Assembly: GCA_017991835.1 (NCBI GenBank)
Contig: JAGOPY010000005.1
Location: forward strand, 155,487 to 219,486
Source: Bacteroidales bacterium
GTDB taxonomy: Bacteria; Bacteroidota; Bacteroidia; Bacteroidales; JAGOPY01
DNA length: 64,000 bases
Reading direction: 5' to 3'
The notes under the pieces were generated by a model. The model had not been told where the DNA came from and did no database searches. It saw nothing but the letters and a program-made list of their open reading frames with translations. The stretch's first letter is position 1, and every line of letters begins with the position of its first letter. This document shows positions 8,769-58,204 of the stretch, piece by piece. A program made the translations under genes and the position numbers.

Positions 8769-8817
8769 ATCCTTAAACCCTTAAAACCCATAAATCCTTA
8801 AATCCTTAAAACCTACA
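8769..8817. repeat. Tandem array with a ~8-nt unit (atccttaa-like, 6 units) between convergent stop codons
   Basis: Units are atccttaa, acccttaa, aacccataa, atccttaa, atccttaa, aacctaca. The array lies between the stops at 8739 and 8821. Confidence 0.8.
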
Positions 8818-8820
8818 ACT

Positions 8821-11364
8821 CTAATTCCCGACACTCAAGCTCCCCATCGGGAAAACGAGCGATATCTTCAGTGCGATATTATCCTTAAACAAAGGATAAC
8901 TGTAGGGTCCCCAGCGGTAACTGGCGCCAATACCGAGTGAATAGACCTGCAGGTTCAGCAGGTTGTTCACCAGGAATCCGCTTTCGTAATAACCTCTCTC
9001 CATCGTCTTATAATTGATCCCCAGATGGTTATCATTATGCTTCAGCCAGCCGAACGCCGCATTGGTGGTGATGACAAATTCGGGCTGGAACTTTTCCCAG
9101 CGCTTCAGCAGTTTTCCGAAATTATGGGTAAAATACAATGCGGCATAACGATCCGACAGGAACTCGTTCATCCGCATCGTCCCGAAACTGTTGTCGGCGA
9201 AAATGGTCAGGAACCGGTAGCTGCCGTTACCGTTGAAAAGATCGGTAGCCGGAATGCCACGGTCGATGTACCCCGCCCTTAGCAGCAGCGAGGTCTTTCC
9301 TATATATTTTGTATAGAACGATTTCTCGATCTTCGCGTCGAGCCGGTTGTATGCAAACTCGCCGTCGAGCAGCCCGTTGATCCCGCGGGTGTACTCCAGC
9401 CACAGTACCGGGTACTTTGTTCCGAGCGACATCCGCGCCCGCTTGGTCACGATGAACTGCTCCCGGAAAGCGAACCGGAACCCTGCCGTCACCTGCGTAA
9501 ACCGGAATTCATCGAGCGAAACGGTTGTCCCCTCTCCCTCGGCAATCCGGTAGCGGTACCCGTCGGATGCCTCCTTCGTGATCATCCTGAAACCCAGGCC
9601 GAATTTGAAGTCTCTCAATAATCTGAATCCCAGCGTCGTTCCCAGGTTTCTGACCGGGTTCTCGCGGTTGACAAGGAAGTTCCGCCAGTTTTCTCCCGTC
9701 AGGAAATTGTCGGTATCATCAAAAAACCTCACTCCCCCGCTCTCTGCAAGGTCATAGGTATATTGCGCCCCCCAGGTGACCTCATGCCGGCGGTTCAGCA
9801 CCACGCTCACATCGCCTCCGTATTTGGCCGATTTATCTTTGAAACCGTAGCCCCAATACCCTCCGATCTTAAAATAGCGGCTCACTTTATCGTTGGTGTG
9901 CGCACCCAGCCCCAGGTAAATCCCCTGGTAATCGTTGTATTTGATGATCCGGTCGAGGTCGATGTCGATGATCTTCCAGGGAATGCGTCCGCTCATCAGC
10001 GTTTCGAAACTCTGCGCAATCCGGTCGAAATTGGCTTCCTTTCCGATGCTGTCGAGGAATTCATAGGTCCGCCGGTCACGGTCAGTCAGCGTATCGATCC
10101 GGTATGCATTCCAGAAATCGTCCGGTTTTTCGTGGGAATCGGGGTCGACATCGACGCCCAGCGTGGCAAACTGCCGCCTGACCAGCTCGGGATTGATCAC
10201 AATGTCGCGGATGTAGCTCTTGCCGATACCCACCAACAGTGCCCGTGCTTCGCCGGCCGCAACCTGCATCCGGGCAAAGATCACATCGGTGTTCAACTGC
10301 ACCGGGAACCATTGCGTATCGTCGATCAGGTCGTACTTCTGCTGGATCTTGATACTGAAGCCCTCCTGCCTCGCCGGTCGTGCAATAGCGTTCTGTATGG
10401 CCCACTTGTAAGAATTGATGTACAGCACCCCTTCCATCCCGTCGAAATTCGTATTGGGTTTAGGACGATAAGAAATGATGAAGACCGTATCCGATCTTTC
10501 GGTATAAAGTGTATCTTCAATAATGAAGATGTATTTGTTCTTACTGCCCTCACTGATCGGATTTATATAGCTCTTATTCAGTATATTAAAGAATTCTTTG
10601 TAGAATGATGTCGACTGTATCTGGGATACCAGGAAGACGAAGATCGGGTCCTGGAAACCGGAAACCCGGTTCGCCTTAACATTCTCATAGTTGCGGTCGG
10701 GTGCCAAGAATTTGCGTTCTACCACCGATTCCATGATGGCAATATCCTGTTTGTCGAAAAACTCCTTCATCTCGGCCAGCGCCGTGTCAGAAAGAGTCGT
10801 GTCGGTCATCATCACTGCCGTGTCGGGCTCCATGATCAGCGTATCGGAGTACCAGTTGCCGGTGCTGTCTTTGCCCACCCGCATCATCGTATCCAGTTTT
10901 GCTGTCAGGATGGTTTTTTCATAAGATGTGTAAGAAAAGGAGGCCAGTTTCTCGGGATCGTTCCGGTAACGGTTGGCAAGCACGCTGTCGATGATCCGGT
11001 GCGCCGGATTAGCCGTGGGCAGAATAACGACTTCATTGAGATCGAAAGTCTTACGCTGCAATTTAATCAAAATCTTATCCACTTCCCCGTAGGGGATGGA
11101 ATACTGTAGCGGGAAATAACCGACATACGTCAGCCATATCGCATCGATCGGGCGGTCGGATTTCAGGGTAAATTTGCCGTCGATATCGGTGGAAATACCG
11201 GTTTTGGTTCCGGTCTGGATGATGTTGACAAAAGCCAGCGGTTCGCGGGTTTCGGCGTCAATCACCCGGCCGGATACGGAGTAAGGATGCTGTGACATGG
11301 CATCCGGCTGGAATGCCAGCAAAAAAGAGATAAGCAGCAGTGATTTCAGTAAAATATTGCGCAT
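8821..11364 (-). CDS. Outer-membrane protein with an N-terminal carboxypeptidase-regulatory-like domain (DUF5686-like from memory)
   Basis: Signal peptide MRNILLKSLLLISFLLAFQPDAMSQ. SGRVIDAETREPLAFVNIIQTGTKTGISTDIDGKFTL is a CarboxypepD_reg-type motif. The long C-terminal part has alternating beta-strand character. The family name is recalled, not searched. Confidence 0.7.
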   Translation of the reverse strand: MRNILLKSLLLISFLLAFQPDAMSQHPYSVSGRVIDAETREPLAFVNIIQTGTKTGISTDIDGKFTLKSDRPIDAIWLTYVGYFPLQYSIPYGEVDKILIKLQRKTFDLNEVVILPTANPAHRIIDSVLANRYRNDPEKLASFSYTSYEKTILTAKLDTMMRVGKDSTGNWYSDTLIMEPDTAVMMTDTTLSDTALAEMKEFFDKQDIAIMESVVERKFLAPDRNYENVKANRVSGFQDPIFVFLVSQIQSTSFYKEFFNILNKSYINPISEGSKNKYIFIIEDTLYTERSDTVFIISYRPKPNTNFDGMEGVLYINSYKWAIQNAIARPARQEGFSIKIQQKYDLIDDTQWFPVQLNTDVIFARMQVAAGEARALLVGIGKSYIRDIVINPELVRRQFATLGVDVDPDSHEKPDDFWNAYRIDTLTDRDRRTYEFLDSIGKEANFDRIAQSFETLMSGRIPWKIIDIDLDRIIKYNDYQGIYLGLGAHTNDKVSRYFKIGGYWGYGFKDKSAKYGGDVSVVLNRRHEVTWGAQYTYDLAESGGVRFFDDTDNFLTGENWRNFLVNRENPVRNLGTTLGFRLLRDFKFGLGFRMITKEASDGYRYRIAEGEGTTVSLDEFRFTQVTAGFRFAFREQFIVTKRARMSLGTKYPVLWLEYTRGINGLLDGEFAYNRLDAKIEKSFYTKYIGKTSLLLRAGYIDRGIPATDLFNGNGSYRFLTIFADNSFGTMRMNEFLSDRYAALYFTHNFGKLLKRWEKFQPEFVITTNAAFGWLKHNDNHLGINYKTMERGYYESGFLVNNLLNLQVYSLGIGASYRWGPYSYPLFKDNIALKISLVFPMGSLSVGN

Positions 11365-11385
11365 GCTGCAAAAATAGGCAATTCC

Positions 11386-12081
11386 TCAGACCGAGAAATA
11401 ATTCCGAAGCTCTTTAAGGGTGTTCTCTTCGGTCTGCAGGTCTTTCACGATGATCCCCTTTTCCAGGATGGCGATCCGGCTGCAGACCTCGGTCACGTGG
11501 TTGAGATCATGGCTGGAGATGAGCAGTGTTGTCCTTTTGTTTTCTTTCAACCTGTTCAGCATATTGATCAGTCTTATCTGTGATGAAGGGTCGAGGCCGT
11601 TGAAAGGTTCATCGAGGATGATGACTTCCGGATCGGCCATAAACGCTGCGGCCACGCCGATCTTTTGCTGGTTTCCTTTGGAAAGGTCGCGGATGAATTT
11701 CTTTTTCCCTAGGATCTCGTCATTAAAAAACTCCGTCATCGAATCCAGGAAAACATGCAGATCTTCCGGCGACATCCCGTGGATACGGGCATTGAAATCA
11801 AAATACTCTTCCGGCGTCAGGAAATCGATCAGGAAATTCCGGTCGAGGTAAGAACCGGTGTAAAGTTTCCAGTTCTCCGACCGCGATACATCCTGTTCTT
11901 TGGAAGTGACAAAACCGGTCTGAGGCCGGATAAGGTCGAGGATCAGGCGGAAAAGGGTTGTTTTACCCGCACCATTATTCCCGACAAGGCCGAAACTCTC
12001 ACCGGCTTTGATCTCCAGAGAGTCGATATTCAGGACGGTGACGCCAGAGTAGATTTTTGACAGATTACTTACTGAAATCAT
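11386..12081 (-). CDS. ABC transporter ATP-binding protein
   Basis: Walker A GNNGAGKTT, signature LSKGNQQK, Walker B IILDEPFNGLD. Confidence 0.9.
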   Translation of the reverse strand: MISVSNLSKIYSGVTVLNIDSLEIKAGESFGLVGNNGAGKTTLFRLILDLIRPQTGFVTSKEQDVSRSENWKLYTGSYLDRNFLIDFLTPEEYFDFNARIHGMSPEDLHVFLDSMTEFFNDEILGKKKFIRDLSKGNQQKIGVAAAFMADPEVIILDEPFNGLDPSSQIRLINMLNRLKENKRTTLLISSHDLNHVTEVCSRIAILEKGIIVKDLQTEENTLKELRNYFSV

Positions 12082-12093
12082 TGTTATACTGAT

Positions 12094-12148
12094 AAAGTGT
12101 TAAAGTGTTAAAGTGTTAAACTGGAATTGTCTTACAGTCCTACCGTCC
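12094..12148. repeat. Octamer array aaagtgtt x3 (+1 degenerate), followed by gtcctaccgtcc, whose accgtcct core is the reverse complement of the 14895 array unit
   Basis: Read directly at 12094-12125 and 12137-12148. It lies between the stop of the upstream permease (12166) and the ABC start (12081). Confidence 0.8.
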
Positions 12149-12165
12149 TAAATTCTCCCTGTTCC

Positions 12166-13644
12166 TCACTCCCTGAATCCCTCAGCCATTGTATATTTTC
12201 TTGCATAAAATCCCTTTTCAATCATCTTTACCCAGAATCTCCTGGAAATCAAACCCAGAATGCCCAGCAAACCGATGGCGGCAAGGCCCGTGTACCTGTT
12301 CCCGGTAAGGTTGAACGGGGCGAAGATGATCAACGGAAGTACAAATGCCGGAATCAGAACCAGCCAGTTCATCAGGCCGACGCCCTGGTAGTTAAAGCTC
12401 GATCCCTTCGCCAGGTCCATCCTCTTCTTATTGAAAGTTGCCATATATAATAAAAGGTATGATAAGAAACCCATGTTAAACAGGAATGCCACGAAGTTGA
12501 TAAGCAGGATATCCATCGAAAACAGAAAGTACGGAATGGTGATGATGAAACAAAAGGTAGTGATCAGCATCCCGATCGTGAGCTTGGCCCGGATGTAAAG
12601 ATCCATGTTAACGCGGCTGGTCAGAAGCCCGTCGAAATGATTGCTCTCGTAGCCGAAAGCGTAATTCAGGTAATTCATCGTCATCCCTCCCGTCATAAAG
12701 GTCCCGACAAAGATCAGCCAGGAGAAATCATTCCTGTAAATCGGGTTCGGATAAAAAAACAACCCGTACAGGACGAAAATGGGAAACATATACAGCATCG
12801 TCTTAGTCCGCTTATGCCTCCACCACAATTTGATGTCGAGCATGATCAGGTCGCCTGTCAATCCCATCGAATTCAGATACTTGATACGCGGAATATCCTG
12901 TACCTGGATGGTTTTATGCCGGATCACCTCATCGGGATAGACTTTCGACTTCAGGTAGAAATAATTCAGCGCATACATTAGAAAGGCCAGAATTACCGGG
13001 AGAATGGCCAGGAAGGGATTCTTCAGGACGGCGCCCATGGCGGAAGCTGAAATATCCGATAACCGGATCAGACCGTATATATCCATCGCCGCAAGGCCAA
13101 TCATTACTATCCCGGCGAGCAAAGTGATTACCGGGCGGGAGACGAGGATCCGCTTCAGGTAAGTTGCCAGAAAGTTATTGCTGATGACGAGGAAAAGGAT
13201 GGAAACGATCCATGCCACAGATGCAGCTCCGCCGTGGGATGGGAGGATGGTCCTGGCTGCAAACGGGATAAATACCAGCAGCGGCAGAAAATTAAGCAGG
13301 TGGAACAGCGATTTGGAAATAACGAAATGCACCATCGAGCTTTTCCTGACCGGGAGATGGAGGTACGATTCGATGGCAAACGTTGGAAGCGCCTGCATCA
13401 GGTAGCGGATCAGCAGGTCGAAACCCAGGAAATACAGGATGATTCCGTTTATTATGGCGACAGGATCGCTGTCGGGCATTATTTCAGAAAGCAAAGGTCC
13501 GAGGAAAAAACCGATCATCAGCAGGTAGACGATCATGAGGAAGGAGAAGAACCCGACGAAGATGTTCGCCACCATGTTCCGTTGCCAGACAGGCGACCGC
13601 CGGTATTCTTTCCACTGGTGATCCAGGAATATTCTGAACAGCAT
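12166..13644 (-). CDS. Polytopic membrane protein, putative permease partner of the adjacent ABC ATPase (DUF5687-like from memory)
   Basis: About 10-12 hydrophobic segments. The likely start is MLFRIFLDHQWKEYRRSP (13644); the ORF track extends to 13668. Confidence 0.7.
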   Translation of the reverse strand: MLFRIFLDHQWKEYRRSPVWQRNMVANIFVGFFSFLMIVYLLMIGFFLGPLLSEIMPDSDPVAIINGIILYFLGFDLLIRYLMQALPTFAIESYLHLPVRKSSMVHFVISKSLFHLLNFLPLLVFIPFAARTILPSHGGAASVAWIVSILFLVISNNFLATYLKRILVSRPVITLLAGIVMIGLAAMDIYGLIRLSDISASAMGAVLKNPFLAILPVILAFLMYALNYFYLKSKVYPDEVIRHKTIQVQDIPRIKYLNSMGLTGDLIMLDIKLWWRHKRTKTMLYMFPIFVLYGLFFYPNPIYRNDFSWLIFVGTFMTGGMTMNYLNYAFGYESNHFDGLLTSRVNMDLYIRAKLTIGMLITTFCFIITIPYFLFSMDILLINFVAFLFNMGFLSYLLLYMATFNKKRMDLAKGSSFNYQGVGLMNWLVLIPAFVLPLIIFAPFNLTGNRYTGLAAIGLLGILGLISRRFWVKMIEKGFYARKYTMAEGFRE

Positions 13645-13689
13645 AGCAGGAAAGTTTTCTTCCTGCAAAGTAAAAAAATATTTTTACAC

Positions 13690-13697
13690 TAACTTTG
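13690..13697 (+). promoter_or_regulatory. -7 promoter box TAnnTTTG (taactttg)
   Basis: Exact match 44 nt upstream of the ATG at 13741. Confidence 0.3.
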
Positions 13698-13740
13698 GAA
13701 CCCGCGGATTTACCCGTCGGACTACCAAACCCGATCCGGC

Positions 13741-14904
13741 ATGGAAGAACAACGCATAAAAATGATTGCCAAGACCTTTGAAGGTTTTGAGGAGATACTG
13801 GCGAGGGAGCTGAGGGACCTTGGCGCGGAAGATATTGACCTGATCAAACGGGGCATTCATTTCAGCGGTGATAAGAAGTTGCTGTACATGGCCAACTACA
13901 ACTGCCGGACGGCGCTCCGCATCCTGGTACCTCTTTCAAGCTTCAGGGCATCCACTGATGCCATGCTTTACGACGGCGTCAGGGCCATCCCGTGGGAAAA
14001 GTTCCTCGATTTCCGGGGGAAATTCGCCATCGACAGCGTGATCAGCTACTCCACATTCACACATTCGGGCTATGTGTCGCTGAAAGCGAAAGATGCGATT
14101 GCCGACCGGTTCCGCGACAAATTCGGCAAACGTCCCGACGTCGATAACAACGATCCCGATCTGCGGGTCAATGTGCATATTTTCCGTGAAGAATGCACCG
14201 TATCCATCGACTCCTCAGGCGCTTCGCTCCATCTGAGGGGTTATCGCCGGGCCCAGACCGAGGCGCCGATAAACGAGGTGCTGGCCGCCGGCCTGATCCT
14301 GATGAGCGGATGGGACGGCAAAACGCCCTTTCTTGATCCCATGTGCGGTTCAGGGACGATCCTGATCGAAGCGGCGCTGATAGCCGGCAGGGTACCTCCC
14401 GGTTATTACCGGCCGCTGTTTGGCTTTGAACGATGGAAGGATTTCGACCGGAGGCTATGGGACCGGGTGAAGCGCGAATGCGAAGAGGCGATTTCGGAGC
14501 CCACTGCACCTATCATCGGCTACGACCGTGATGAAAAAGCCATCCTTGCCAGCCAGGCCAACATCGATGAAGCCGGCGTAGAGCAATTCGTCAAGGTTGA
14601 GCAGGCCGATTTCACCACTGCTTCCCCGCCCTGGCGCAGCGGATTCCTCCTCACCAATCCACCTTACGGCGAGCGGATCAAGGTGGAAGACCTGAAACAG
14701 TTTTACAAAGACATCGGCGACGTGCTGAAACAGAAATATGCCGGCTATACCGCGTGGCTGCTGGGTTCCAACGAAGAAGCCATGAAATTCATCGGCCTCC
14801 GCCCTTCCCGCCGGATCAGGGTGATGAACGGCCCGCTCGAATGCCGGCTGGCGAAGTTTGAGCTGTACGAAGGGAGAAAGGGAGATAAGACTTTAGGACG
14901 GTAG
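13741..14904 (+). CDS. THUMP-domain class I SAM-dependent RNA methyltransferase (RlmL/YpsC-like)
   Basis: N-terminal THUMP-like region (AKTFEGFEEILARELRDLGA), the SAM-binding motif DPMCGSGTILIEA, and the catalytic NPPYGERI motif. Confidence 0.85.
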   Translation: MEEQRIKMIAKTFEGFEEILARELRDLGAEDIDLIKRGIHFSGDKKLLYMANYNCRTALRILVPLSSFRASTDAMLYDGVRAIPWEKFLDFRGKFAIDSVISYSTFTHSGYVSLKAKDAIADRFRDKFGKRPDVDNNDPDLRVNVHIFREECTVSIDSSGASLHLRGYRRAQTEAPINEVLAAGLILMSGWDGKTPFLDPMCGSGTILIEAALIAGRVPPGYYRPLFGFERWKDFDRRLWDRVKRECEEAISEPTAPIIGYDRDEKAILASQANIDEAGVEQFVKVEQADFTTASPPWRSGFLLTNPPYGERIKVEDLKQFYKDIGDVLKQKYAGYTAWLLGSNEEAMKFIGLRPSRRIRVMNGPLECRLAKFELYEGRKGDKTLGR

Positions 14905-14918
14905 GACGGTAGGACTGC
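14895..14918. repeat. Octamer array aggacggt aggacggt aggactgc that contains the gene's TAG stop
   Basis: Read directly. The CDS ends ...ACT TTA GGA CGG TAG inside the array. Confidence 0.85.
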
Positions 14919-14981
14919 AGAAAGGCAGGATAAAGTATTAATAAAAGCGTGTTTCAAAAGGTAAGATTTCTTTCAAAATAG

Positions 14982-15067
14982 CTTCGTGTACCTTCGTGCC
15001 TTCTTCGTGGATCTCTGTGCAACAATCATTTATAAATTACACGAAGTTCCACGAAGGTTTCACGAAG
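14982..15067. repeat. Inverted heptamer arrays: CTTCGTG x3, a 30-nt spacer, then CACGAAG x3 (segmented long hairpin)
   Basis: CTTCGTG at 14982, 14992 and 15003; CACGAAG at 15040, 15050 and 15061. The arms are reverse complements with 3-4-nt spacers. Confidence 0.85.
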
Positions 15068-15116
15068 CTCCACAAAGGACTTTTTAAACATCTTCATTCT
15101 TGTTGCCTTTTAGCAG

Positions 15117-15124
15117 TACCTTTG
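15117..15124 (+). promoter_or_regulatory. -7 promoter box TAnnTTTG (tacctttg) upstream of pfkA
   Basis: Exact match 26 nt upstream of the ATG at 15150. Confidence 0.4.
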
Positions 15125-15149
15125 CACCGAAAATCAGATCAACGAAAAA

Positions 15150-16130
15150 ATGCCATCAATTAAAAGAATAGGCGTACTGACCTCGGGGGGCGATGCACCG
15201 GGGATGAATGCCGCCATCCGCGCCGTGGTGCGCACCGGAATCTATCACGGCCTCGAAGTTTACGGAATCTATAAAGGCTATAGCGGGCTCATCCAGGGAT
15301 TGATCGAACCCTTGCACAGCCGGTCGGTCTCCAATATCATCCAGCGTGGCGGAACCATTCTGAAGACGGCCCGCAGCGAGGAGTTCAGAACCCAGGAAGG
15401 CCGCAAAAAAGCCCACGAGAACCTTATCAAACACAATATCGACGCGTTGGTCGTTATCGGTGGCGACGGCACCTTTACCGGGGCGAAAATCTTCCAGGAA
15501 GAATTCAACTATCCGATCGTCGGTCTGCCCGGAACGATCGACAACGACCTCTACGGCACCGACTACACTATCGGTTACGATACGGCCGTCAACACAGTGG
15601 TGGATGCAGTAGATAAGATCCGTGATACGGCTGACTCACACGACAGGCTGTTCATCATCGAGGTGATGGGGCGCGATGCGGGATTCATCGCATTAAGAAG
15701 CGGTATCGCTACCGGCGCCGAGAAGATCCTCATCCCGGAAAGTGTCACCTACACCGATGAGCTGATCGAAAAATTACGGACAGACTATGCCAACAACAAG
15801 ACCTCGGGGATCATCATCGTAGCCGAAGGCGACGACCTGGGCGGCGGATTCGATGTGGCCAGGGTGATAAAGGAACATTTTCCGCAATACGACACCCGGG
15901 TCACGATCCTGGGCCATGTCCAGCGCGGCGGTTCGCCCTCAGCTTTCGACCGCACCATGGCCAGCGCGATGGGATACCAGGCGGTGCTGGCCCTGAAAGA
16001 CGGGGTGCGCGGCGTGATGGTCGGCTCGATAAACCGGAAAGTCAGCTATACGCCGTTTGAGAAAGCAATCAAGCTGCACCAGAGTATCAACGAGGAATTG
16101 TTGGAAATTGCCGAGGTCCTTTCGCATTAA
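15150..16130 (+). CDS. pfkA: ATP-dependent 6-phosphofructokinase
   Basis: IGVLTSGGDAPGMNAAIRAVVR, GGDGTFTGA and PGTIDND motifs; 326 aa. Confidence 0.95.
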   Translation: MPSIKRIGVLTSGGDAPGMNAAIRAVVRTGIYHGLEVYGIYKGYSGLIQGLIEPLHSRSVSNIIQRGGTILKTARSEEFRTQEGRKKAHENLIKHNIDALVVIGGDGTFTGAKIFQEEFNYPIVGLPGTIDNDLYGTDYTIGYDTAVNTVVDAVDKIRDTADSHDRLFIIEVMGRDAGFIALRSGIATGAEKILIPESVTYTDELIEKLRTDYANNKTSGIIIVAEGDDLGGGFDVARVIKEHFPQYDTRVTILGHVQRGGSPSAFDRTMASAMGYQAVLALKDGVRGVMVGSINRKVSYTPFEKAIKLHQSINEELLEIAEVLSH

Positions 16131-16181
16131 CCTGACCGGTTATTTCGTACCTTTCAGCCTTTAAATCAAGCGCTGAATCCG

Positions 16182-18668
16182 TTGGAAACCAAATTCGCAA
16201 ATGTCCTTCTGCCCCTGCCTTTGCCGGGCTATTTCACCTACCATGTCCCGGGTGATTTCCGGGAAATGATTGCGCCGGGCAAGCGGGTCGTGGTGCCATT
16301 CGGTAAAAAAAAGATCTATACGGCGCTGGTCCATGAAGTCCTGGAAGAAAACCCCTCCTCTTTTGAACCGAAAAGCATCCTGTCGGTCATCGACGACAGG
16401 CCTGTTGTTTTCCCGGTACAGTTCCGGTTCTGGGAATGGATGGCATCGTACTACATGTGTACCCCCGGCGAAGTGATGAACGCTGCCCTCCCTTCCGGGT
16501 TCAAGCTGGCAAGCGAATCGATGGTCTGCCTCAATCCCGAGGCCGACCTCGAAACCGCCGATCTCAACGAGAAAGAGATCATGATCGTGGAAGCGCTCCT
16601 CTCCCAGAAAAAACTTCCTGTAAATGCCATTGCCGACCTGCTTGACCAGCGAAAGATCATCCCGATCATCCATACATTAATTGATAAAGGGATCGTCGTC
16701 GCCGAGGAAAAGCTCGAAGAGAAGTACAAGCCGCTCAGGCAGACCTTCATCCGGCTGGGAAAAGAATATGAAGATGAAGATAAGCTCAAAGCCATATTTG
16801 ACGAACTCAGCAAGCGGGCATTCAAGCAATTGCAGGCACTGATGGTTTTCCTGTCGCTGACCCGGGAAGCTTCCGTTAAAGCGATGGATGTTAGAAAAAG
16901 CGACCTCCTGAAAAACAAGGATGTGACGCAGCAGGCGCTTACCGCATTGATTAACAAGGGAATACTGGAATATTTCGAGATCGAGGCGAGCCGTCTGGCC
17001 GCTTCAACCGCGTTGAACGATCCGGGCGATATTGCGCTGAGCCTTCATCAGAAAAGGGCTTTTAGCGATATCGGGCGCATTTTTGCAGAGAAAGAGGTGA
17101 TCCTTCTTCATGGGATCACATCAAGCGGAAAGACGGAGTTGTATATCAAACTGATCGACCAGGCGTTGAATGAGAGAAAACAGGTGCTGTACCTGCTGCC
17201 CGAGATCGCGCTGACATCGCAGATCATCAATCGGCTGCAGCGATATTTCGGCGACAATGTAGGCGTTTATCATTCAAAATATAACGACAATGAACGGGTA
17301 GAAATCTGGAACCACTGCCTTCACCATGAAAAGGATTTTGAGAAAGGACGGTTCCAGGTGATCCTGGGCGCCCGCTCCGCCCTGTTCCTGCCCTATCACA
17401 ACCTGGGCCTAATCATTGTTGATGAAGAACACGATTCATCGTACAAGCAATATGATCCGGCGCCGAGGTACCATGCCCGGGATGCGGCGATCATGCTGGC
17501 CAGGCTCCACGGCGCAAAAACATTGCTGGGCTCTGCTACTCCGGCAATTGAAAGCTACTTTAATGCTTCGAATGGAAAATACGGGCTGGTGGAGATGACG
17601 GAACGGTTCGGCGGGGTCAGCCTGCCGGAGATTGTGCTGGCCAACGTGAGGGAGGAGACGAGGAATAAAACGATGCAGTCGCACTTCACCTCGGTCCTTA
17701 TCAATCGTACCAGGGATGCGCTGGCGCTGAAAGAGCAGGTGATCCTTTTCCAGAACCGGCGCGGATTCTCGCTGCACCTGACCTGCGATTCGTGCGACTG
17801 GGTCCCGATGTGCAAGAACTGCGACATCTCCCTCACCTACCATAAGCGGGAGAACAAGATCAAATGCCACTATTGCGGTTATTCGGAGGCGCTGCCGCAG
17901 GAGTGCCCGCAGTGCAAAAGCACGCGTATCCTGATGAAAGGGTTCGGAACGGAGAAAGTGGAAGAAGAACTTGGCGCGATATTCCCGGAAGCCACCATCC
18001 GCCGTATGGACCTCGATTCCACGCGGACGAAATACGCCCACCAGCGGCTGATCTCCGATTTTGAAGAGCGGCGGACCGATATCCTGGTCGGGACGCAGAT
18101 GGTGACCAAAGGGCTGGATTTCGACAACGTCAGCCTCGTCGGTATCCTGAACGCCGATAACATGCTTAATTTTCCAGACTTCCGGTCGCACGAACGGAGT
18201 TTTCAGCTCATGGAGCAGGTCAGCGGGCGGGCCGGGAGGAAAGCGAAGCAAGGCCAGGTCATTATCCAGAGCTATAACCCGCAGCATGCGATCATCCAGC
18301 ATGTTGTCCATCACGATTATCACGCTTTCTACCGCTCCCAGCTCACCGACCGGTACAAATTCCAGTACCCGCCTTTCAACCGGCTGATCATCCTGAAGAT
18401 CAAGCACCGCGATTACAATGTACTGAACAAGGCGGCCCGCGACCTGGCCCACGATCTGCGTGTGGACCTGGGAAAAAGGATTCTCGGCCCCGAATACCCG
18501 CTGGTCTCAAAAATCCAGAACTGGTATATCAAGCATATCATGGTCAAGATTGAGCGGGGGAACAATATCGCTGAGATGAAGAAAATTATTCTAAACAGGA
18601 TTGAAAATACCGGCAGGATCCCGGCTTACAGGCAGGTACGGGTGGTTATTGATGTTGACCCGGTTTGA
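16182..18668 (+). CDS. priA: Primosomal protein N' (replication restart helicase)
   Basis: Walker A GITSSGKTE, DEEHD box and a Cys-rich zinc region (CDSCDWVPMCKNCDISLTYH...CHYCG...CPQCKS). It appears to start at a TTG. Confidence 0.93.
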   Translation: METKFANVLLPLPLPGYFTYHVPGDFREMIAPGKRVVVPFGKKKIYTALVHEVLEENPSSFEPKSILSVIDDRPVVFPVQFRFWEWMASYYMCTPGEVMNAALPSGFKLASESMVCLNPEADLETADLNEKEIMIVEALLSQKKLPVNAIADLLDQRKIIPIIHTLIDKGIVVAEEKLEEKYKPLRQTFIRLGKEYEDEDKLKAIFDELSKRAFKQLQALMVFLSLTREASVKAMDVRKSDLLKNKDVTQQALTALINKGILEYFEIEASRLAASTALNDPGDIALSLHQKRAFSDIGRIFAEKEVILLHGITSSGKTELYIKLIDQALNERKQVLYLLPEIALTSQIINRLQRYFGDNVGVYHSKYNDNERVEIWNHCLHHEKDFEKGRFQVILGARSALFLPYHNLGLIIVDEEHDSSYKQYDPAPRYHARDAAIMLARLHGAKTLLGSATPAIESYFNASNGKYGLVEMTERFGGVSLPEIVLANVREETRNKTMQSHFTSVLINRTRDALALKEQVILFQNRRGFSLHLTCDSCDWVPMCKNCDISLTYHKRENKIKCHYCGYSEALPQECPQCKSTRILMKGFGTEKVEEELGAIFPEATIRRMDLDSTRTKYAHQRLISDFEERRTDILVGTQMVTKGLDFDNVSLVGILNADNMLNFPDFRSHERSFQLMEQVSGRAGRKAKQGQVIIQSYNPQHAIIQHVVHHDYHAFYRSQLTDRYKFQYPPFNRLIILKIKHRDYNVLNKAARDLAHDLRVDLGKRILGPEYPLVSKIQNWYIKHIMVKIERGNNIAEMKKIILNRIENTGRIPAYRQVRVVIDVDPV

Positions 18669-18671
18669 TCT

Positions 18672-18968
18672 TCACTCTCTCGTAACCAGGTAGATATCCT
18701 CGCTGTCGCGTTTCATCAGGTATTTCTCCCGGCCGAATTTTTCAATGGCTTCGGGATTATTAATCAGCTCCTCGATCAAGGTGTTGTTCCTGGCAATTTC
18801 CGACGCATAAAACGCTTTCATCTCCCTGATTTCGGTAATGCGCTGGTTCAATGTGTGTTGCCGCTTCAGGCTGTTCGTATCGAAGAAGATCATCCATACG
18901 GCGAATGCTACCAGTGTGATGAAATAGCGGTTGAGGAATATTTTTTTCAGGATGCGGAGCATGATCAT
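18672..18968 (-). CDS. FtsB/DivIC-like septum formation initiator family protein
   Basis: 98 aa with one N-terminal TM segment (YFITLVAFAVWMIFF) followed by a coiled-coil-like segment. Confidence 0.6.
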   Translation of the reverse strand: MIMLRILKKIFLNRYFITLVAFAVWMIFFDTNSLKRQHTLNQRITEIREMKAFYASEIARNNTLIEELINNPEAIEKFGREKYLMKRDSEDIYLVTRE

Positions 18969-19135
18969 TTAATCAGGATTTAAAGATAAGGTTGATAATG
19001 CAGATGATTCCTTAAAATAGCAGGAATTTTTAACTTGATTTTGTTGATAACCGATATGCCACATAAACATTATAATCCGTTGAAGCGCCATTGCCCGCGT
19101 TTTACTTCCGATGACTGAAAATGTCAGGTGATAAA

Positions 19136-20062
19136 TTAGTGACTATCAATGCCATGTAGCATAAAAACTGAATGCCTCAGGGTTTTTGAGATTTCAGCCA
19201 TATATTCATTGACCGCTTTAACACTACCCGGGAGGGCATAGATCAGGGTGGAACCGGCCACCCCGGCCACGCTCCGGCTCAGCAATGCATTCGGTTTTTC
19301 CATACCATATTTGATGCGGATCAGTTCCATAATGCCCGGAATCTCTTTATCAATCACCGAACGCACCGCCTCCGGTGTGATATCCCTCGGCCCGATCCCC
19401 GTGCCACCGGTGGTAATAACGATGTCGGTCTTGTCGCTTTTTGCTTTTTGCAGTAATGATTTCAGTTCATTCTCATCATCGGGGATGATATGATGAGTGA
19501 TTTCGCTTTTCCAGTTTTGTTGTGTAAAAAAATCATTCAGGATGGCGATGGTGCGCGGCCCGCTTTTATCTTCATAAATGCCCTGGCTGGCCCTGTCGCT
19601 GAGGGTGATCACTATTGCCTTATAAATTTTTTCTATAAAGATGATCGGGTCTCCCGGACGAACGATTCCCGGGCGGATCACGCGGCAGAAAATACCTTCT
19701 TTCGGCATCACGCAATTGCCAACCTCGCGGAAGATGGCGCAACTATCGCCATGGCATTCTTTGCCGATCTGGGTCACTTCCAGTTCGGTTTCGCCAATGA
19801 TGAACCTGTCGAGGGGATGGGTTTCATGCAGGATGATCCCGTCGGTCGTGATATTTTCGGCAAATTCGCCGAACCGGATCTCCCGTCCGGCGGCTTTTGA
19901 GAATTTGTCAACGCTCTCTTTTGCCAGCAGGCTCACCTGGCGGTTCCACGGACCGGCATGCGCATCGTTCTTCACCCCCCATTCATCCAGGCAGATAGAA
20001 TCTACCGGCTGCTTCACCGTCCCCTTTTTTTCCGAAATATTAACCGACAATACCCTAATCAT
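19136..20062 (-). CDS. Fusion of a MOSC domain with a MogA/MoaB-type molybdopterin adenylyltransferase domain
   Basis: The N-terminal half (VLSVNISEKKGTVKQPVD...VTQIGKECH) is MOSC-like. The C-terminal half (ITLSDRAS...DIVITTGGTGIGPRDITPEA) is MogA/MoaB-like. Confidence 0.8.
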   Translation of the reverse strand: MIRVLSVNISEKKGTVKQPVDSICLDEWGVKNDAHAGPWNRQVSLLAKESVDKFSKAAGREIRFGEFAENITTDGIILHETHPLDRFIIGETELEVTQIGKECHGDSCAIFREVGNCVMPKEGIFCRVIRPGIVRPGDPIIFIEKIYKAIVITLSDRASQGIYEDKSGPRTIAILNDFFTQQNWKSEITHHIIPDDENELKSLLQKAKSDKTDIVITTGGTGIGPRDITPEAVRSVIDKEIPGIMELIRIKYGMEKPNALLSRSVAGVAGSTLIYALPGSVKAVNEYMAEISKTLRHSVFMLHGIDSH

Positions 20063-20113
20063 ACCAATTTCCTATTTCTGATTCAAAATGCACCATTTCT
20101 TTTTCCTTTTTCC

Positions 20114-20155
20114 CTCTTCACTCTTCACTCTTCACCCTTCACTCTTCACTCTTCC
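20114..20155. repeat. Heptamer array ctcttca x6 overlapping the moaC stop codon
   Basis: Six phased units. The moaC TGA (20146-20148) and the last residues EKRKEE are encoded within or next to the array. Confidence 0.85.
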
Positions 20156-20598
20156 TTCCTCTTCTCCACCAGCCTGATCTCCCCGATAACCATCTCTTTA
20201 TCAACCGCTTTGCACATGTCGTAAATTGTAAGGAGGGCAACGGATGCAGCGGTCAGCGCTTCCATTTCCACGCCGGTCTGTCCGACACACTTTGCCGTAG
20301 CAGTAACTGTAACACCCGAATCACCGATAGCCGTCACGACATCGATCTTTGTGATCTGAAGCGGGTGGCATAGCGGGATCAGATCAGCGGTCTTTTTTCC
20401 TGCCTGGATACCGGCGATCTGCGCTACCGTCAGCACATCGCCTTTTTTTATTTCGTTTTCCCGTATCAGCCGGATGGTCTCCGGGTTCAGGCGGATATAG
20501 CCCGTTGCTGTAGCTATCCTTAACTGTTCCGGCTTGTGGCCCACATCAACCATCCTTGCCCGGCCCGATTCATCGGTATGCGAAAAGCTGCTCCCCAT
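20146..20598 (-). CDS. moaC: Cyclic pyranopterin monophosphate synthase accessory protein
   Basis: MVDVGHKP...LIPLCHPL...GVEMEALTAASVALLTIYDMCKA is the canonical MoaC sequence. Confidence 0.93.
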   Translation of the reverse strand: MGSSFSHTDESGRARMVDVGHKPEQLRIATATGYIRLNPETIRLIRENEIKKGDVLTVAQIAGIQAGKKTADLIPLCHPLQITKIDVVTAIGDSGVTVTATAKCVGQTGVEMEALTAASVALLTIYDMCKAVDKEMVIGEIRLVEKRKEE

Positions 20599-20600
20599 AT

Positions 20601-20628
20601 TTCAAAGTTCAAAGTTCAAAGTTCAAAG
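20601..20628. repeat. Heptamer array ttcaaag x4, starting 2 nt upstream of the moaC start codon
   Basis: Read directly; it begins 2 nt from the moaC ATG (20596-20598). Confidence 0.85.
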
Positions 20629-20642
20629 ATAATTCGATATTT

Positions 20643-20694
20643 CCAATGACGCTTGCGCAGCAAGCCAATGACGCGAACGAAGTGAGCTAATGAC
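20643..20694. repeat. REP-like repeat, locus 2 (two units, opposite orientation to locus 1)
   Basis: The reverse complement reads gtcattagctcacttcgttcgcgtcattgg cttgctgcgcaagcgtcattgg. Confidence 0.8.
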
Positions 20695-20706
20695 TATAGT
20701 CTTATC

Positions 20707-21507
20707 TCATCCTCCGATCCACGAAAACTCCTCTTCAGAATTGGCTGTCCCGCAGCGGGGTTTGTTGCTGACGGCCTGCAAAATAGCTTCCCTTGCTCCA
20801 AGTTCCCTCACATTGTAGCCGATGGCGTTGAACAGGCACGGCTTGACGATCCCGTTTGAGGTCAGCCGGAGACGGTTGCAGCGGTTGCAGTTTCCTCCGT
20901 CGCCTCCGTCTACCACATAAAATTCACCCGAAGCCAGGTCCATCTGCCGGATAAACCGGACCTGGAATCCGTTTGCTTCGCTGAATTCTTTCACCCGGGC
21001 TGCATCCTCCGGATCCATTTCATAACCTGTGACGCAGTTGATCTTGACCGGGGTTAACCCGACCTCCCTGGCTTTCATAATTCCCTTCTTCACCTCTTCA
21101 ATATCGCCTCCCCGGGTGATTTTTCTGAACCTTTCCGCATCCAGCGTATCGAGGCTGATATTCACCCGCTGAAGACCGGCATCTTTCAGCTCTTGCGCAA
21201 ATCTTTCAAGTAGGATGCCATTGGTGGTCATCGACAGATCGACGATCCCGGGGATCGAGGCCAGCATCTTTACCAGGTTGGTTATTCCTTTGCGCACCAG
21301 TGGTTCTCCGCCGGTCAGCCTGATCTTGCTGACACCCATTTCCGCAGCTATTTGCGCTACTTCAACAATTTCATCGTACGACAGGATATCTTCGTGCCGA
21401 AGCAGCGTGATCCCATCGGCAGGCATGCAATAAGTGCAGCGCAGGTTGCACCGGTCGGTGACCGAGATGCGCAGGTAATTGATCTGGCGGTCAAACCGGT
21501 CGAACAT
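20707..21507 (-). CDS. moaA: GTP 3',8-cyclase (radical SAM), short form
   Basis: CNLRCTYCMP radical-SAM cluster motif plus MoaA-like downstream sequence; 266 aa. Confidence 0.88.
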   Translation of the reverse strand: MFDRFDRQINYLRISVTDRCNLRCTYCMPADGITLLRHEDILSYDEIVEVAQIAAEMGVSKIRLTGGEPLVRKGITNLVKMLASIPGIVDLSMTTNGILLERFAQELKDAGLQRVNISLDTLDAERFRKITRGGDIEEVKKGIMKAREVGLTPVKINCVTGYEMDPEDAARVKEFSEANGFQVRFIRQMDLASGEFYVVDGGDGGNCNRCNRLRLTSNGIVKPCLFNAIGYNVRELGAREAILQAVSNKPRCGTANSEEEFSWIGG

Positions 21508-37888: not shown

Positions 37889-37980
37889 TAATTTATTCCG
37901 GTTAAATACGACATATCGCACAGCCAATTATCTAATTTAGAATGATTCAAAATTAATTTTCATCACCCCGCCATCATTAT

Positions 37981-38092
37981 ATCAAAATATTAAAACCTCA
38001 AAATATCACAAATTCATAAAATCACAAAATCATAAGTTCAAAAAATCATAAGTTCAAAAAATCACAAAATCAAAATATCAAAATATCAATTC
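37981..38092. repeat. Phase-locked array of 14 octamers (WTCAnAAn), ending 1 nt before the AI-2E stop codon
   Basis: Parsed by hand as atcaaaat, attaaaac, ctcaaaat, atcacaaa, ttcataaa, atcacaaa, atcataag, ttcaaaaa, atcataag, ttcaaaaa, atcacaaa, atcaaaat, atcaaaat, atcaattc. Confidence 0.9.
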
Positions 38093-39133: not shown

Positions 39134-39847
39134 TCAAACAATATCCCTTGCCAACTTCTTCCAGATTCCCTCCTCCGGCAAAGGTGCCGTGATACTGACC
39201 GGTGCTTTGCTCACCGGGTGCACAAATTCAACCATCCGGGAGTGAAGGCTGATCGATCCGTCGGGATTGGAACGGGGAGCGCCGTATTTCAGATCGCCTT
39301 TGATCGGGCGGCCGATGGCAGCCAGCTGTGCCCTGATCTGGTGATGCCGGCCCGTCAGCAGTTCCACTTCGAGCAAATCGTAACGGTCGCCCTGTGCAAT
39401 CACACGGTATAAAAGCTCTGCCCTCTGCCTCCCTTCTCCCGGCAGATCGTATGCATAGGACTTGTTTTGTTTTTCATTACGACTTAAGAAATGAGTGATC
39501 AAAATCGACTGCAGACTGCAGACTGCCGGCTGCTTACTGCCGACTGCCGACTGCCGACCGCAGACAGCCCAATACACTTTCTTCACTTCCCGTTTCCGGA
39601 GCATGGCATTCATCCGGGCCAGCGCCTTACTGGTCCGGGCAAAAACCACCGCTCCGCTGACCGGCCGGTCGAGACGGTGAACAACGCCCAGGAACACCTC
39701 TCCCGGCTTATGATATTTTTCTTTCAGATAGGATTTTAACGTCTCAACCAGCGGCTCATCCCCGGTTTTATCACCCTGCACAATATCACCCGGCTGCTTG
39801 TTGACGATCAGCAGATGATTGTCTTCGTATAAAATTTGGTTTGTCAT
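39134..39847 (-). CDS. RluA-family pseudouridine synthase carrying an in-frame heptamer array
   Basis: HRLDRPVSG catalytic motif, plus KKVYWAV...RNEKQNKS...TGRHHQIRAQL. Confidence 0.88.
   Translation of the reverse strand: MTNQILYEDNHLLIVNKQPGDIVQGDKTGDEPLVETLKSYLKEKYHKPGEVFLGVVHRLDRPVSGAVVFARTSKALARMNAMLRKREVKKVYWAVCGRQSAVGSKQPAVCSLQSILITHFLSRNEKQNKSYAYDLPGEGRQRAELLYRVIAQGDRYDLLEVELLTGRHHQIRAQLAAIGRPIKGDLKYGAPRSNPDGSISLHSRMVEFVHPVSKAPVSITAPLPEEGIWKKLARDIV
39507..39569. repeat. Heptamer array gactgcM x9 (63 nt = 21 codons) inside the RluA-family CDS
   Basis: Units are gactgca, gactgca, gactgcc, ggctgct, tactgcc, gactgcc, gactgcc, gaccgca, gacagcc. They encode AVCGRQSAVGSKQPAVCSLQS on the minus strand. 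Confidence 0.9.
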
Positions 39848-55127: not shown

Positions 55128-55132
55128 GAGGT

Positions 55133-57061: not shown

Positions 57062-57103
57062 ATTAATAATTAAGCATTAAGAATTAAGAATTAAGCATTA
57101 AAA
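57062..57103. repeat. Heptamer array attaagM x6, ending 1 nt before the msrB/A stop codon
   Basis: Units are attaata, attaagc, attaaga, attaaga, attaagc, attaaaa. Confidence 0.85.
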
Positions 57104-57104
57104 A

Positions 57105-58046
57105 CTAGAATCTCTTCGTATATCCATGGCAATAGGGCAAGGTGCCTTTATTGTCGTAATAATCCTGGTGGTAATTTTCTGCCGGCCAGAAGGTTGTCGC
57201 TTTTGTGACTTTCGTGGCCACTTTGAAGCCTTTGTTTTTGAGGATTCCGATAAGGTTTTCAGTGATTATCTTCTGATTTTCATCCAGGTAAAAAATTTCG
57301 GAACGGTACTGTGCGCCGACATCGGGACCCTGGCGGTTGACCTGGGTCGGGTCGTGGATTTCGAAGAAGAGGCGGGCCAGTTCTTCGTAAGACACTTTAG
57401 AAGGATCGAAGGTAATCTCTACTGCTTCGGCATGGCCGGTGGTTCCCTTGCAGACCTCCTGGTAGGTAGGATTATCTTTATGTCCGCCGATATAACCCGA
57501 AACGACCGAGATCACACCCGGTTTCTTCTGCATATAGTATTCGACGCCCCAAAAGCATCCTCCGGCGAATATTGCCCGGTTTACGGCCTGATTGGCCGCT
57601 TCTGAATCAGGAATAAAATTCATAGAGATGGAATTTACGCAATGACGTGTGTTTTTATCTGTAAAGCCTTCATCCAGGAAGACGTGCCCCAGGTGTCCGC
57701 CGCAACTGGCGCAGATGATCTCTGTCCGCATACCATCGGGATCGGGAATCCTTTTGACTGCCCCTTTGATCTCATCGTCGAAGCTGGGCCATCCGCAGTG
57801 GGAGTCGAACTTATCTTCCGACCTGTAAAGCGGGGCGTCACACCGGCGGCAGGTATAAGTACCTGTTTCTTTATTGTTCAGGTATTTTCCAGTCCACGGG
57901 CGCTCAGTCCCTTTTTGGATGATGATATATTCTTCCTCCGGGGTTAACTTATTGTATTTCATATTGTTTTGCGAAAATATAATGGTTGGGATGATGGAGA
58001 CTAAAACGATTACAGCTTGCCGGATCATTATCATCAATTTTAACAC
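57105..58046 (-). CDS. Exported bifunctional methionine sulfoxide reductase MsrB-MsrA
   Basis: N-terminal signal/TM segment, MsrB motifs (CRRCDAPLY, HCGWPSF, RHCVNS), then MsrA GGCFWGVE. Confidence 0.9.
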   Translation of the reverse strand: MLKLMIMIRQAVIVLVSIIPTIIFSQNNMKYNKLTPEEEYIIIQKGTERPWTGKYLNNKETGTYTCRRCDAPLYRSEDKFDSHCGWPSFDDEIKGAVKRIPDPDGMRTEIICASCGGHLGHVFLDEGFTDKNTRHCVNSISMNFIPDSEAANQAVNRAIFAGGCFWGVEYYMQKKPGVISVVSGYIGGHKDNPTYQEVCKGTTGHAEAVEITFDPSKVSYEELARLFFEIHDPTQVNRQGPDVGAQYRSEIFYLDENQKIITENLIGILKNKGFKVATKVTKATTFWPAENYHQDYYDNKGTLPYCHGYTKRF

Positions 58047-58081
58047 CTAACCGTTTTGTGCCAATTTTGTTTAAAAATTTG

Positions 58082-58159
58082 TTGATCCCCTACGGGGAAA
58101 AATTACAATACGCTCATTTTTCTATAAGAATTGATCCCCTAAGGGGAATATAATACATC
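58082..58159. repeat. Two direct ~29-nt repeats, each with a TCCCC-TAM-GGGGA hairpin
   Basis: ttgatcccctacggggaaaaattacaatac (58082-58111) and ttgatcccctaaggggaatataatacatc (58131-58159). Confidence 0.8.
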
Positions 58160-58164
58160 GATGA

Positions 58165-58204
58165 TCGCCCGTTCGCCTGTTCGCCCGTTTACCCGTACGC
58201 TTGT
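58165..58204. repeat. Octamer array tcgcccgt x5 running into the purL stop codon
   Basis: Units are tcgcccgt, tcgcctgt, tcgcccgt, ttacccgt, acgcttgt. The purL TAA is at 58204-58206. Confidence 0.8.

Follow-up and report, generated by a model that had tools for sequence, protein, structure and literature searches.

Tandem arrays of 7- and 8-nt units at coding-sequence boundaries in a Bacteroidales clade: probable long simple-sequence repeats in inflated spacers

Introduction

Among the short tandem repeats described from bacteria, those closest to the arrays presented here are the long simple-sequence repeats with units of 5-11 nt (LSSR5-11) of Mrazek, Guo & Shah (2007). As that survey is cited in PMC4679880 and PMC4692102, these repeats are intergenic, heptamers are the commonest, and they have been ascribed to polymerase slippage, with the length of DNA held by the polymerase suggested as the ruler of ~7 nt; according to the same accounts the survey stressed large, high-GC genomes and found a scattered phylogenetic spread. 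Here we describe tandem arrays with 7- or 8-nt units in a 64-kb stretch of contig JAGOPY010000005.1 (referred to as the window), which is ordinary chromosomal DNA, with a GC content of 48.5%, from an uncultured Bacteroidales-type bacterium. It is likely that the arrays are long simple-sequence repeats, in which slippage has inflated once-minimal spacers in one Bacteroidales clade.

Several other repeat systems share part of these characteristics. The short tandemly repeated repetitive (STRR) heptamers of the cyanobacteria Calothrix, Nostoc and Anabaena, with the GGGGA(T/C)T or GGGAATC repeats of Nostoc and Xanthomonas, are intergenic 7-nt tandem arrays of no established function (PMC4692102). 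In those genomes a small number of unit families, some of them G-quadruplex-forming, recur at many loci, whereas here there is nearly one unit per locus, 8-nt units are common, and in the 64 kb and the related loci only TAGGACGG recurs, at 2 loci. The TAACTGA repeats of marine Beggiatoaceae, cyanobacteria and five Bacteroidetes (MacGregor 2015, PMC4679880) are likewise intergenic heptamers, which lie a few nt from starts or run across the stop of the preceding gene. Any open reading frame (ORF) that enters a forward repeat is bound to end there, stops being present in all three frames, and in Gramella and Aequorivita other heptamer repeats share the same spacers (PMC4679880). They have one specific unit, in contrast to the locus-specific units described here, and TAACTGATAACTGA has no match in the window at two or fewer mismatches.

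Phase-variable simple-sequence repeats are represented by Haemophilus influenzae hmw1A, whose 5' region carries a 7-bp ATCTTTC repeat, the number of which can set expression (PMC8262952). The likeness lies in a heptamer array, situated in a 5' leader, whose copy number changes in whole units by slippage (PMC8262952); those repeats belong to surface or virulence genes and have a phenotype, whereas the arrays of the window accompany housekeeping genes and lie mostly downstream of stops. Repetitive extragenic palindromic (REP) sequences, the bacterial interspersed mosaic elements (BIMEs) built from them and miniature inverted-repeat transposable elements (MITEs) occupy the same niche, the short post-gene spacers of compact genomes, and REP-like hairpins co-occur in the window. 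Such elements are palindromic or have inverted termini and follow a family consensus; the 7/8-nt arrays have neither, the predicted folding energy of most of them is near 0, as in shuffles, and an Rfam scan gave no family match anywhere in the window. Clustered regularly interspaced short palindromic repeats (CRISPR) have repeats of about 24-48 nt with unique spacers of similar length between them, whereas the present units are of 7-8 nt, contiguous and spacerless.

With LSSR5-11, as far as the two citing papers portray the class, the arrays have in common head-to-tail tandem copies far above chance length, a lead of heptamers, a mostly intergenic location where the unit is no multiple of 3, and a scattered distribution. 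The four features that define the class, namely tandem units within the 5-11-nt range, an excess over composition, a bias of units other than multiples of 3 to non-coding DNA and changes by whole units, were all found here. Against the same portrayal, the differences are that 8-nt units are as common as 7-nt units, that arrays occur in 43% of spacers of 61-250 nt, that they are flush with stops or starts, that the sense strand is G-rich at stops, and that the host is a moderate-GC uncultured Bacteroidales. A preliminary description of the window had known of no element class that would hold these arrays; the LSSR class, as cited, does hold them, and they belong to a known kind of repeat at unusual density rather than to a new element class. 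What is new is how densely the arrays occur, that 8-nt units share the lead with 7-nt ones, and that the G-richness follows the gene.

Results and Discussion

Unit length and abundance

The arrays were detected with Tandem Repeats Finder (TRF), taking a period of 7 or 8 and at least 2.8 copies in the window (Table 1). The eight arrays listed in the preliminary description were each recovered by TRF and read in the sequence, and their phase-locked 7- or 8-nt units are borne out by the counts: the window contains 12 period-7/8 arrays, against a mean of 0.27 and a maximum of 1 in 30 dinucleotide-preserving shuffles. The copy number of the units is 2.8-13.9 and the proportion of matches 73-100%. 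When the window was taken together with seven related loci (204 kb in total), 39 period-7/8 arrays were found and 1.4 expected, period 7 contributing 21 (0.6 expected) and period 8 contributing 18 (0.8 expected); periods 5, 6, 9 and 10 occurred 1, 2, 3 and 4 times, respectively. Exact runs in 17.8 kb of clade intergenic DNA gave the same picture, with 31 for k=7 (1.1 expected), 20 for k=8 (0.6 expected) and chance levels for k=4-6 and k=9-14. The restriction to 7 and 8 nt is real.

The clade was defined by an amino-acid identity of at least 67% in the flanking genes. The closest species-representative genomes are metagenome-assembled genomes (MAGs) labelled 'uncultured Bacteroidales', with a DUF5687 identity of 69-71%, and many metagenome assemblies, including one labelled activated sludge, contain near-identical strains. 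Array density drops with phylogenetic distance, from 2.2-13 arrays per 10 kb where loci measure 2.7 kb or more and are at least 71% identical to the window, to 0-3.6 arrays per 10 kb at 55% identity or less. Period 8 is nearly limited to the close clade.

Table 1. Tandem arrays of the window, with strand, unit and genic context (CDS, coding sequence; T9SS, type IX secretion system; ABC, ATP-binding cassette)
Positions	Strand	Period (nt)	Unit and copies	TRF call	Context
8771-8814	.	8	CCTTAAAC on +, GTTTAAGG on -; x5.4	8771-8814	Between convergent stops 8739 (T9SS-tail protein) and 8821 (DUF5686); 6 nt from 8821
12082-12150	-	8	See text	12082-12120, x4.9; 12129-12150, x2.8	Single 8-nt register filling the 84-nt spacer from DUF5687 stop (12166) to ABC ATPase ATG (12081)
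14870-14915	+	8	AAGGGAGA x2, then TAGGACGG x2.8 (14894-14915)		AAGGGAGA inside 3' end of THUMP methyltransferase CDS; stop TAG at 14902-14904
20099-20164	-	7	GAGTGAA x6.4 (gene strand), flanked by related GAAAAAG units	20110-20154	Holds moaC TGA (20146-20148); fills most of 83-nt spacer before MOSC/MoCF gene
20601-20628	-	7	CTTTGAA x4 (gene strand)	20601-20628	Start-adjoining: 2 nt upstream of moaC ATG, 78 nt from moaA stop
37979-38092	-	8	TTTGATAT-like x13.9; 40-nt higher-order period	37979-38089	Begins 1-4 nt past TAA of AI-2E transporter gene (38094); another 248 nt to start of 3022-aa gene
57062-57103	-	7	TCTTAAT/GCTTAAT x5.7 (gene strand)	57062-57101	1-3 nt after msrAB stop (57105)
58165-58203	-	8	ACGGGCGA-like x4.5-5 (gene strand)	58165-58200	Directly after purL TAA (58204-58206)
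8441-8478	+		AGGAGACA x4.4		Inside CDS 7117-8739
8511-8542	+	7	GATTGCC x4.6		Inside T9SS C-terminal sorting domain, CDS 7117-8739
39506-39569	-	7	GCAGTCG x9.1 (~63 nt, 21 codons)		Inside CDS of RluA-family pseudouridine synthase
2286-2402	+	22, then 11	22-nt units x3.3, then GTCATAAAGTA x2.5		Starts 4 nt after proS stop (2282)

Position relative to genes

Positions were pooled from 12 distinct clade genomes (~200 kb), in which 88.5% of the DNA is coding. These genomes hold 61 period-7/8 arrays, of which 44 lie outside ORFs despite the non-coding share of only 11.5%; the other 17 fall in called ORFs, some of which are spurious. For 39 of the arrays, which are intergenic, both neighbouring genes are known, and in 26 of these 39 a CDS boundary is no more than 6 nt away. 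Uniform placement of each array within its own spacer gives an expectation of 9.3, and none of 200,000 simulations reached the observed number. The excess is found at stops (17, with 6.3 expected) and at starts (9, with 3.0 expected; P=0.001). The preliminary description had placed the arrays at stop codons, and at most gene 3' ends. The excess at stops upholds the former statement in part, but starts have their own excess and a preference for stops over starts in co-directional spacers was dropped, 13 of 26 arrays being nearer the stop; the latter was overstated, as just 8 of the 44 called genes of the window have a 7/8-nt array within 31 nt of the stop. An association of 8-nt units with stops and 7-nt units with starts amounts to just a weak trend.

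The rule that holds is one of anchoring to the ends of coding sequences, and in many cases it arises because one to three arrays occupy the whole spacer. Arrays are held by 22 of the 51 clade spacers of 61-250 nt and by none of the 37 spacers of 20 nt or less, and when the arrays are removed many spacers fall to 10-25 nt. Some arrays sit in divergent promoter spacers. The spacer between the DUF5687 and ABC ATPase genes shows how completely the space can be taken up: its gene strand reads TAGGACGG TAGGACTG TAAGACAA TTCCAGTT TAACACTT x3 TATCAGTA TAACA-ATG, so that one end of the array touches the ATG of the ABC ATPase and the other is no more than 15 nt from the DUF5687 stop.

Spacer inflation and change of units across the clade

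The DUF5687-to-ABC spacer measures 9-33 nt in 7 of 10 distant relatives (DUF5687 identity 39-55%) and 53-160 nt in the other three; in every member of the clade it measures 73-303 nt. In most of these it consists of arrays whose units differ between genomes or are related in a chain (AGGACGGT, AACGGTGA, AAAAGTGA, CTGGGTGA, CTAGGTGA and GGAGTGGT), and in L028, L008-L011 and L049 it consists of hairpin repeats. The ABC-to-DUF5686 spacer, by comparison, is constant across the clade at ~21 nt (18-21). After the DUF5686 stop an array begins within 0-13 nt in 7 of 9 clade genomes, with mostly unrelated units. Between the THUMP and pfk genes, which touch or overlap in distant relatives, clade genomes have 50-245 nt. 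As for conservation in relatives, then, position is kept in orthologous spacers while the unit mostly differs, that at the THUMP stop being kept.

The array at the THUMP stop has the unit (A/G)GACGGTA in the window (x2.8), in L026 (x14.4) and in L027. In all three the protein ends in ...GR*, encoded by GGA CGG TA|G or TA|A, and in the window the TAG is formed where units 1 and 2 of the 14894-14915 array join. The last two codons and the stop thus come from unit 1 and from the point where it meets unit 2, which agrees with the preliminary description, where tracts affecting C-termini were one of the possible roles. A coding first copy that re-seeds the array would explain how the unit can be conserved without any function of the array itself.

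Most units differ from locus to locus, as the preliminary description had it, but not without exception: TAGGACGGTAGGAC recurs after the DUF5687 stop (12137-12150, minus strand) and after the THUMP stop (14894-14915). The two places, 2.7 kb apart, share the 18-mer TTTAGGACGGTAGGACTG in inverted orientation, which suggests, from the sequence, ectopic conversion between arrays. When units were compared by rotation and reverse complement with at most one mismatch, 61 matching pairs were found, against 15.3 for permuted units; this excess is mostly orthology.

In strains with 98-99% identical flanks, the spacer at 12067-12162 exists as two unrelated alleles. The 84-nt array allele is that of the window and of L022-L024; the other (L008-L011 and L049) has a length of 176-212 nt, with REP-like hairpin units TGCTCCGACGACTAAAGCCGTCGGTTG in 2 or 3 copies at a 36-nt period, and also carries a 26-nt duplication. 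A similar hairpin allele is present in L028, which has an identity of 70% in DUF5687 and 82% in DUF5686.

Copy-number alleles in sister strains

An exact-protein look-up with MoaC returned 10 contigs that differ in sample and assembler, among them SPAdes and MEGAHIT assemblies from ENA and MAGs from NCBI, the others being from JGI and Logan. The same look-up with msrAB, DUF1295 and the last gene returned no further strains, and with AI-2E and panB identical alleles only. The strain comparison covers ~12 kb in ~10 sister strains of 96-99% nucleotide identity; its copy-number allele data apply to the moaC and THUMP loci and not to the arrays at 37979, 39506, 57062 and 58165.

The arrays proved polymorphic by whole units, in line with the slipped-strand tracts proposed in the preliminary description. 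CTTTGAA, upstream of moaC, is present four times in the window and 4 sister loci and five times in 6 sister loci. GAGTGAA occurs in six or two copies among the sister strains with the MoaC protein unchanged, and TAGGACGG at the THUMP stop occurs in three copies in the window and two in six sister strains, again with an unchanged protein. All insertions or deletions of at least 4 nt between the sister strains fall in 7/8-nt arrays, as whole units. Arrays are moreover edged on both sides by decayed units that are in register, with an identity of 0.31-0.39 as compared with 0.26 in controls (P=3e-5 and 8e-4), and this flanking decay has no polarity toward the gene. Growth from one end, which would be polar, was accordingly rejected, and the unpolarised in-register edges bear the signature of slipped-strand mispairing with edge decay.

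Artefacts of assembly might be suspected in repeats of this kind. Short-read contigs often break near repeats, Logan contigs of the sister strains end 48 nt past the proS stop, and runs of N occur within repeat-filled spacers of L002 (~8461-8670, in the CTTGGAGA array after the THUMP stop) and L010 (~11815-11910, in the hairpin-repeat spacer). These scaffold gaps imply that some arrays exceed what the reads could span. The same arrays with discrete whole-unit alleles are, against this, found in more than 15 contigs across samples, assemblers and databases of independent origin, so that the arrays are almost certainly genuine; the same alleles indicate slipped-strand mispairing.

RNA structure, pairing and stop triplets

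No terminator-like site was found in the array-bearing spacers of 2000-21000; this segment has 22 such sites, against 19.1 in shuffles, all of them elsewhere, and no GC-rich stem with a T-run occurs at or beside any array in it. The predicted folding energy of the sense RNA is ~0 for most arrays, equal to that of shuffles (P=0.63) and marginally different from that of permuted units (P=0.046); selection for unstructured RNA was set aside on these two values. Shine-Dalgarno-like pairing with the 3' end of 16S RNA is no better than for permuted units (P=0.53). A stop triplet (TAA, TAG or TGA) is contained in 8 of 9 units of the window, with 4.7 expected (P=0.008); a rule of stops in all frames was rejected, since the stop-nearest arrays of the clade give 12 of 24, with 10.9 expected, which is the level of chance. 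Nor is array or spacer length conserved, being 2 or 6 units between strains and 73-303 nt between species.

Favoured reading and points against it

We infer that slipped-strand mispairing in replication made the arrays and keeps them homogeneous, that the arrays have no sequence-specific function, and that their composition is filtered by context, AT-rich beside starts and with a G-rich, C-poor mRNA strand beside stops. The inflation by arrays, in the clade, of spacers that were once minimal (0-33 nt) is itself shown by the spacer comparison. Since a gain or loss of 7 or 8 nt puts the reading frame out of step, expansion would be tolerated only outside a coding sequence or at its extreme edge, and with ancestral spacers offering almost no other free DNA the arrays would come to lie flush with stops and starts. 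A tandem copy that spans a stop codon would spare the protein, so that arrays could begin slightly within the coding sequence. Drift would then affect copy number and spacer length and eventually unit sequence, and adjacent blocks of one array would diverge and homogenise separately.

A number of observations weigh against this reading. In stop-nearest arrays, read on the sense strand of the gene, G exceeds C in 19 and falls below it in 4, with a skew of +0.48, as compared with -0.08 in array-free DNA after stops (G>C in 31, G<C in 38); the difference has a Fisher P of 0.0017, or 0.0098 with orthologous arrays collapsed. The orientation tracks the gene and not the chromosome strand: TAGGACGG is on one strand at 12137 and on the other at 14894. 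Such a skew is not expected from plain neutral slippage; its most economical reading would be a filter against C-rich, Rho-attracting untranslated RNA. Start-nearest arrays have a GC content of 32% and no skew, and leaders in the Bacteroidota are generally AT-rich. The wholesale difference between the two alleles at 12067-12162 is beyond slippage alone. Arrays are kept at the same orthologous spacers over ~25-30% protein divergence, sometimes with the same unit, as at the THUMP stop, and this persistence could reflect selection rather than concerted evolution. Slippage also leaves the cause of the 7-8-nt ruler, and of the proneness of the clade to arrays, unaccounted for, and the whole sample amounts to ~200 kb of loci, with genomes represented only in part.

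Alternative explanations

Selection enters most directly if the arrays are mRNA spacers or regulatory modules, independent of sequence, whose copy number tunes expression: after stops a G-rich, C-poor stretch would avoid Rho loading or hold ribosomes, and before starts an AT-rich, unstructured leader would suit the Shine-Dalgarno-less translation of the Bacteroidota. The confinement of the G>C skew to stop-adjacent arrays, the AT-richness of the unskewed start-adjacent ones, the predicted folding energies near 0 and the presence of arrays in the same operon-internal spacers of all clade genomes speak for this, and the heptamer number in Haemophilus hmw1A (PMC8262952) leaves a tuning role open, by analogy, for the start-adjacent arrays. 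Spacer length is however variable between species and between strains, the lack of structure differs marginally from that of permuted units and not from that of shuffles, complementarity to the 16S 3' end is what composition predicts, stop triplets are at chance, and the genes concerned are housekeeping ones (moaC, purL, msrAB); as a whole we regard such modules as rather unlikely. An active process with a fixed ruler or trigger, such as fill-in of staggered cuts of 7-8 nt or R-loop-driven expansion where translation ends, could draw on the very sharp 7/8 ruler, the many arrays that begin exactly at a stop codon, the G-rich sense strand, which would favour R-loops, and the same 18-mer inverted at two loci. 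We judge it quite improbable. Away from arrays, two-copy duplications standing alone show no clear enrichment (5 against 1.3 for k=7, 0 against 0.4 for k=8), a result on which target-site-duplication footprints were rejected and which implies that the ruler acts on expansion and not on seeding; the decay of the flanks is without polarity; no transposase, reverse transcriptase or nuclease gene is found among the genes of the window; arrays also occur at start codons and in divergent promoter spacers; and heptamer predominance is widespread in bacteria. The templated insertion that had been raised as a possible origin in the preliminary description is not supported by the same duplications and flanks, and the terminator role it also considered fares no better, as follows.

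Intrinsic or hairpin-independent transcription terminators, or stabilisers of the 3'-untranslated region, would accord with the eight window arrays that lie no more than 31 nt after stops, but the arrays do not fold, the hairpin terminators looked for in 2000-21000 were absent from them, and several arrays are inside operons, directly before the next start, so that this explanation is highly unlikely. The same can be said, with hardly more reserve, of a mobile family of MITE or REP type inserting downstream of genes: REP-like families do share the spacers (the 22-nt palindrome-bearing family and the CCGACG...CGTCGG hairpins described below) and the TAGGACGG unit occurs at two loci, yet the 7/8-nt arrays lack inverted termini and palindromes, most loci have no sequence in common, the arrays vary by single units and Rfam has no match in the window. 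A bolder combination, which we hold to be unlikely, takes the sharp ruler, the exact starts at stop codons and the gene-oriented G-richness together as marks of a directed process, the arrays having been co-opted as sequence-free spacers. Ribosome-exit-triggered expansion with R-loops on bare G-rich RNA, or a defect of replisome or repair that is peculiar to the clade and has a footprint of 7-8 nt, may be candidates for such a process; if it were true, the arrays would uncouple neighbouring genes in Bacteroidota that do without Shine-Dalgarno sequences.

The clade provides a clean contrast, since its array-rich genomes share their gene order with array-poor relatives, in which the ancestral state of the spacers can still be seen. 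Comparing the replisome and repair genes of the two could address both the ~7-nt ruler and the lineage-limited accumulation. In practice, the arrays are ready-made markers for strain typing by variable number of tandem repeats in uncultured Bacteroidales of activated sludge and other environmental metagenomes. They also break short-read assemblies and can mislead gene callers, starts, stops, signal peptides and C-terminal tails being sometimes encoded by repeats.

Arrays within coding sequences

The GCAGTCG array at 39506-39569 encodes AVCGRQSAVGSKQPAVCSLQS, which aligns with a conserved segment of E. coli RluC and is only ~5 residues longer. Going by this alignment, the repeat seems to have overwritten native coding sequence rather than just to have been inserted. 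The in-CDS arrays (8441-8542 and 39506-39569) could shift the frame; no length variant of them was found among the strains compared.

The GATTGCC array encodes part of the T9SS sorting domain (IVDCRLPIVD). In strain L025 the sorting domain and this array are kept, while the upstream region (2509-8481 in the window) is unrelated sequence, with the junction at the AGGAGACA array. Downstream, the 8771-8814 array has an equal copy number in this strain and four substitutions. The GC content falls to 0.38-0.40 at 2000-8000 of the window, as compared with ~0.49 elsewhere; this part comprises the gene of a 1444-aa papain-like protease and the front of the T9SS-tail gene. The low-GC segment, being replaced in L025, is probably a strain-variable island.

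A further repeat-encoded segment is found in the first 40-130 nt of the DUF5686 orthologue, where a 7-nt GCTTGCA array is present in L001-L003, L028, L030, L031 and L051. In most of these it has 3-4 copies and encodes the end of the signal peptide (L-A-A-C-S-L-Q-L-A-A-Q), and in L002 it has 12.9 copies (90 nt). The window, L026, L027 and L029 have no such array in this gene.

Other features of the window

The window includes, in one part, proS, the gene of the T9SS-tail protein, the DUF5686/ABC/DUF5687 genes, the THUMP methyltransferase gene, pfkA, priA and moaA/moaC/moeA, and in the other the gene of the 3022-aa surface protein, the AI-2E transporter gene, the RluA-family synthase gene, panB, dnaK, holA, msrAB and purL. 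A tRNA scan of the 64 kb found no tRNA.

Repeats of other kinds share the spacers with the 7/8-nt arrays. A 22-nt family, GTCATnnGCTCnCTnnGTTCGC, with embedded palindromes such as GCTCGCTGCGCGAGC, is present at 2286-2358 and 20640-20700 (minus strand), beginning 4-6 nt past the proS and moaA stops and in the sense orientation both times; the pattern has 3 matches, with 0.16 expected. In the divergent THUMP/DUF5687 spacer (13669-13740 of the window), L009 and L010 have an insertion of ~210-235 nt that is bordered on either side by a 21-nt copy of the hairpin GTAGTCCGACGGGTAAATCCG, the two in direct orientation, and that holds more CCGACG...CGTCGG hairpins, some facing each way.

Between the THUMP gene and pfkA, at 14971-15088, there are inverted, 10-nt-phased repeats, in which CTTCGTG x3 is followed after 14 nt by CACGAAG x4; the arms have a length of 52 nt and are 71% complementary. 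L001 shows this architecture at the equivalent position, built from another unit (AAATCTGCGA / TCGCAGAT). From its layout, the region may form a long interrupted hairpin or a phased protein-binding site. Finally, a small hairpin occurs twice at 58086-58147, between the purL-side array and the msrAB start, as GATCCCCTACGGGGAA and GATCCCCTAAGGGGAA, ~45 nt apart.

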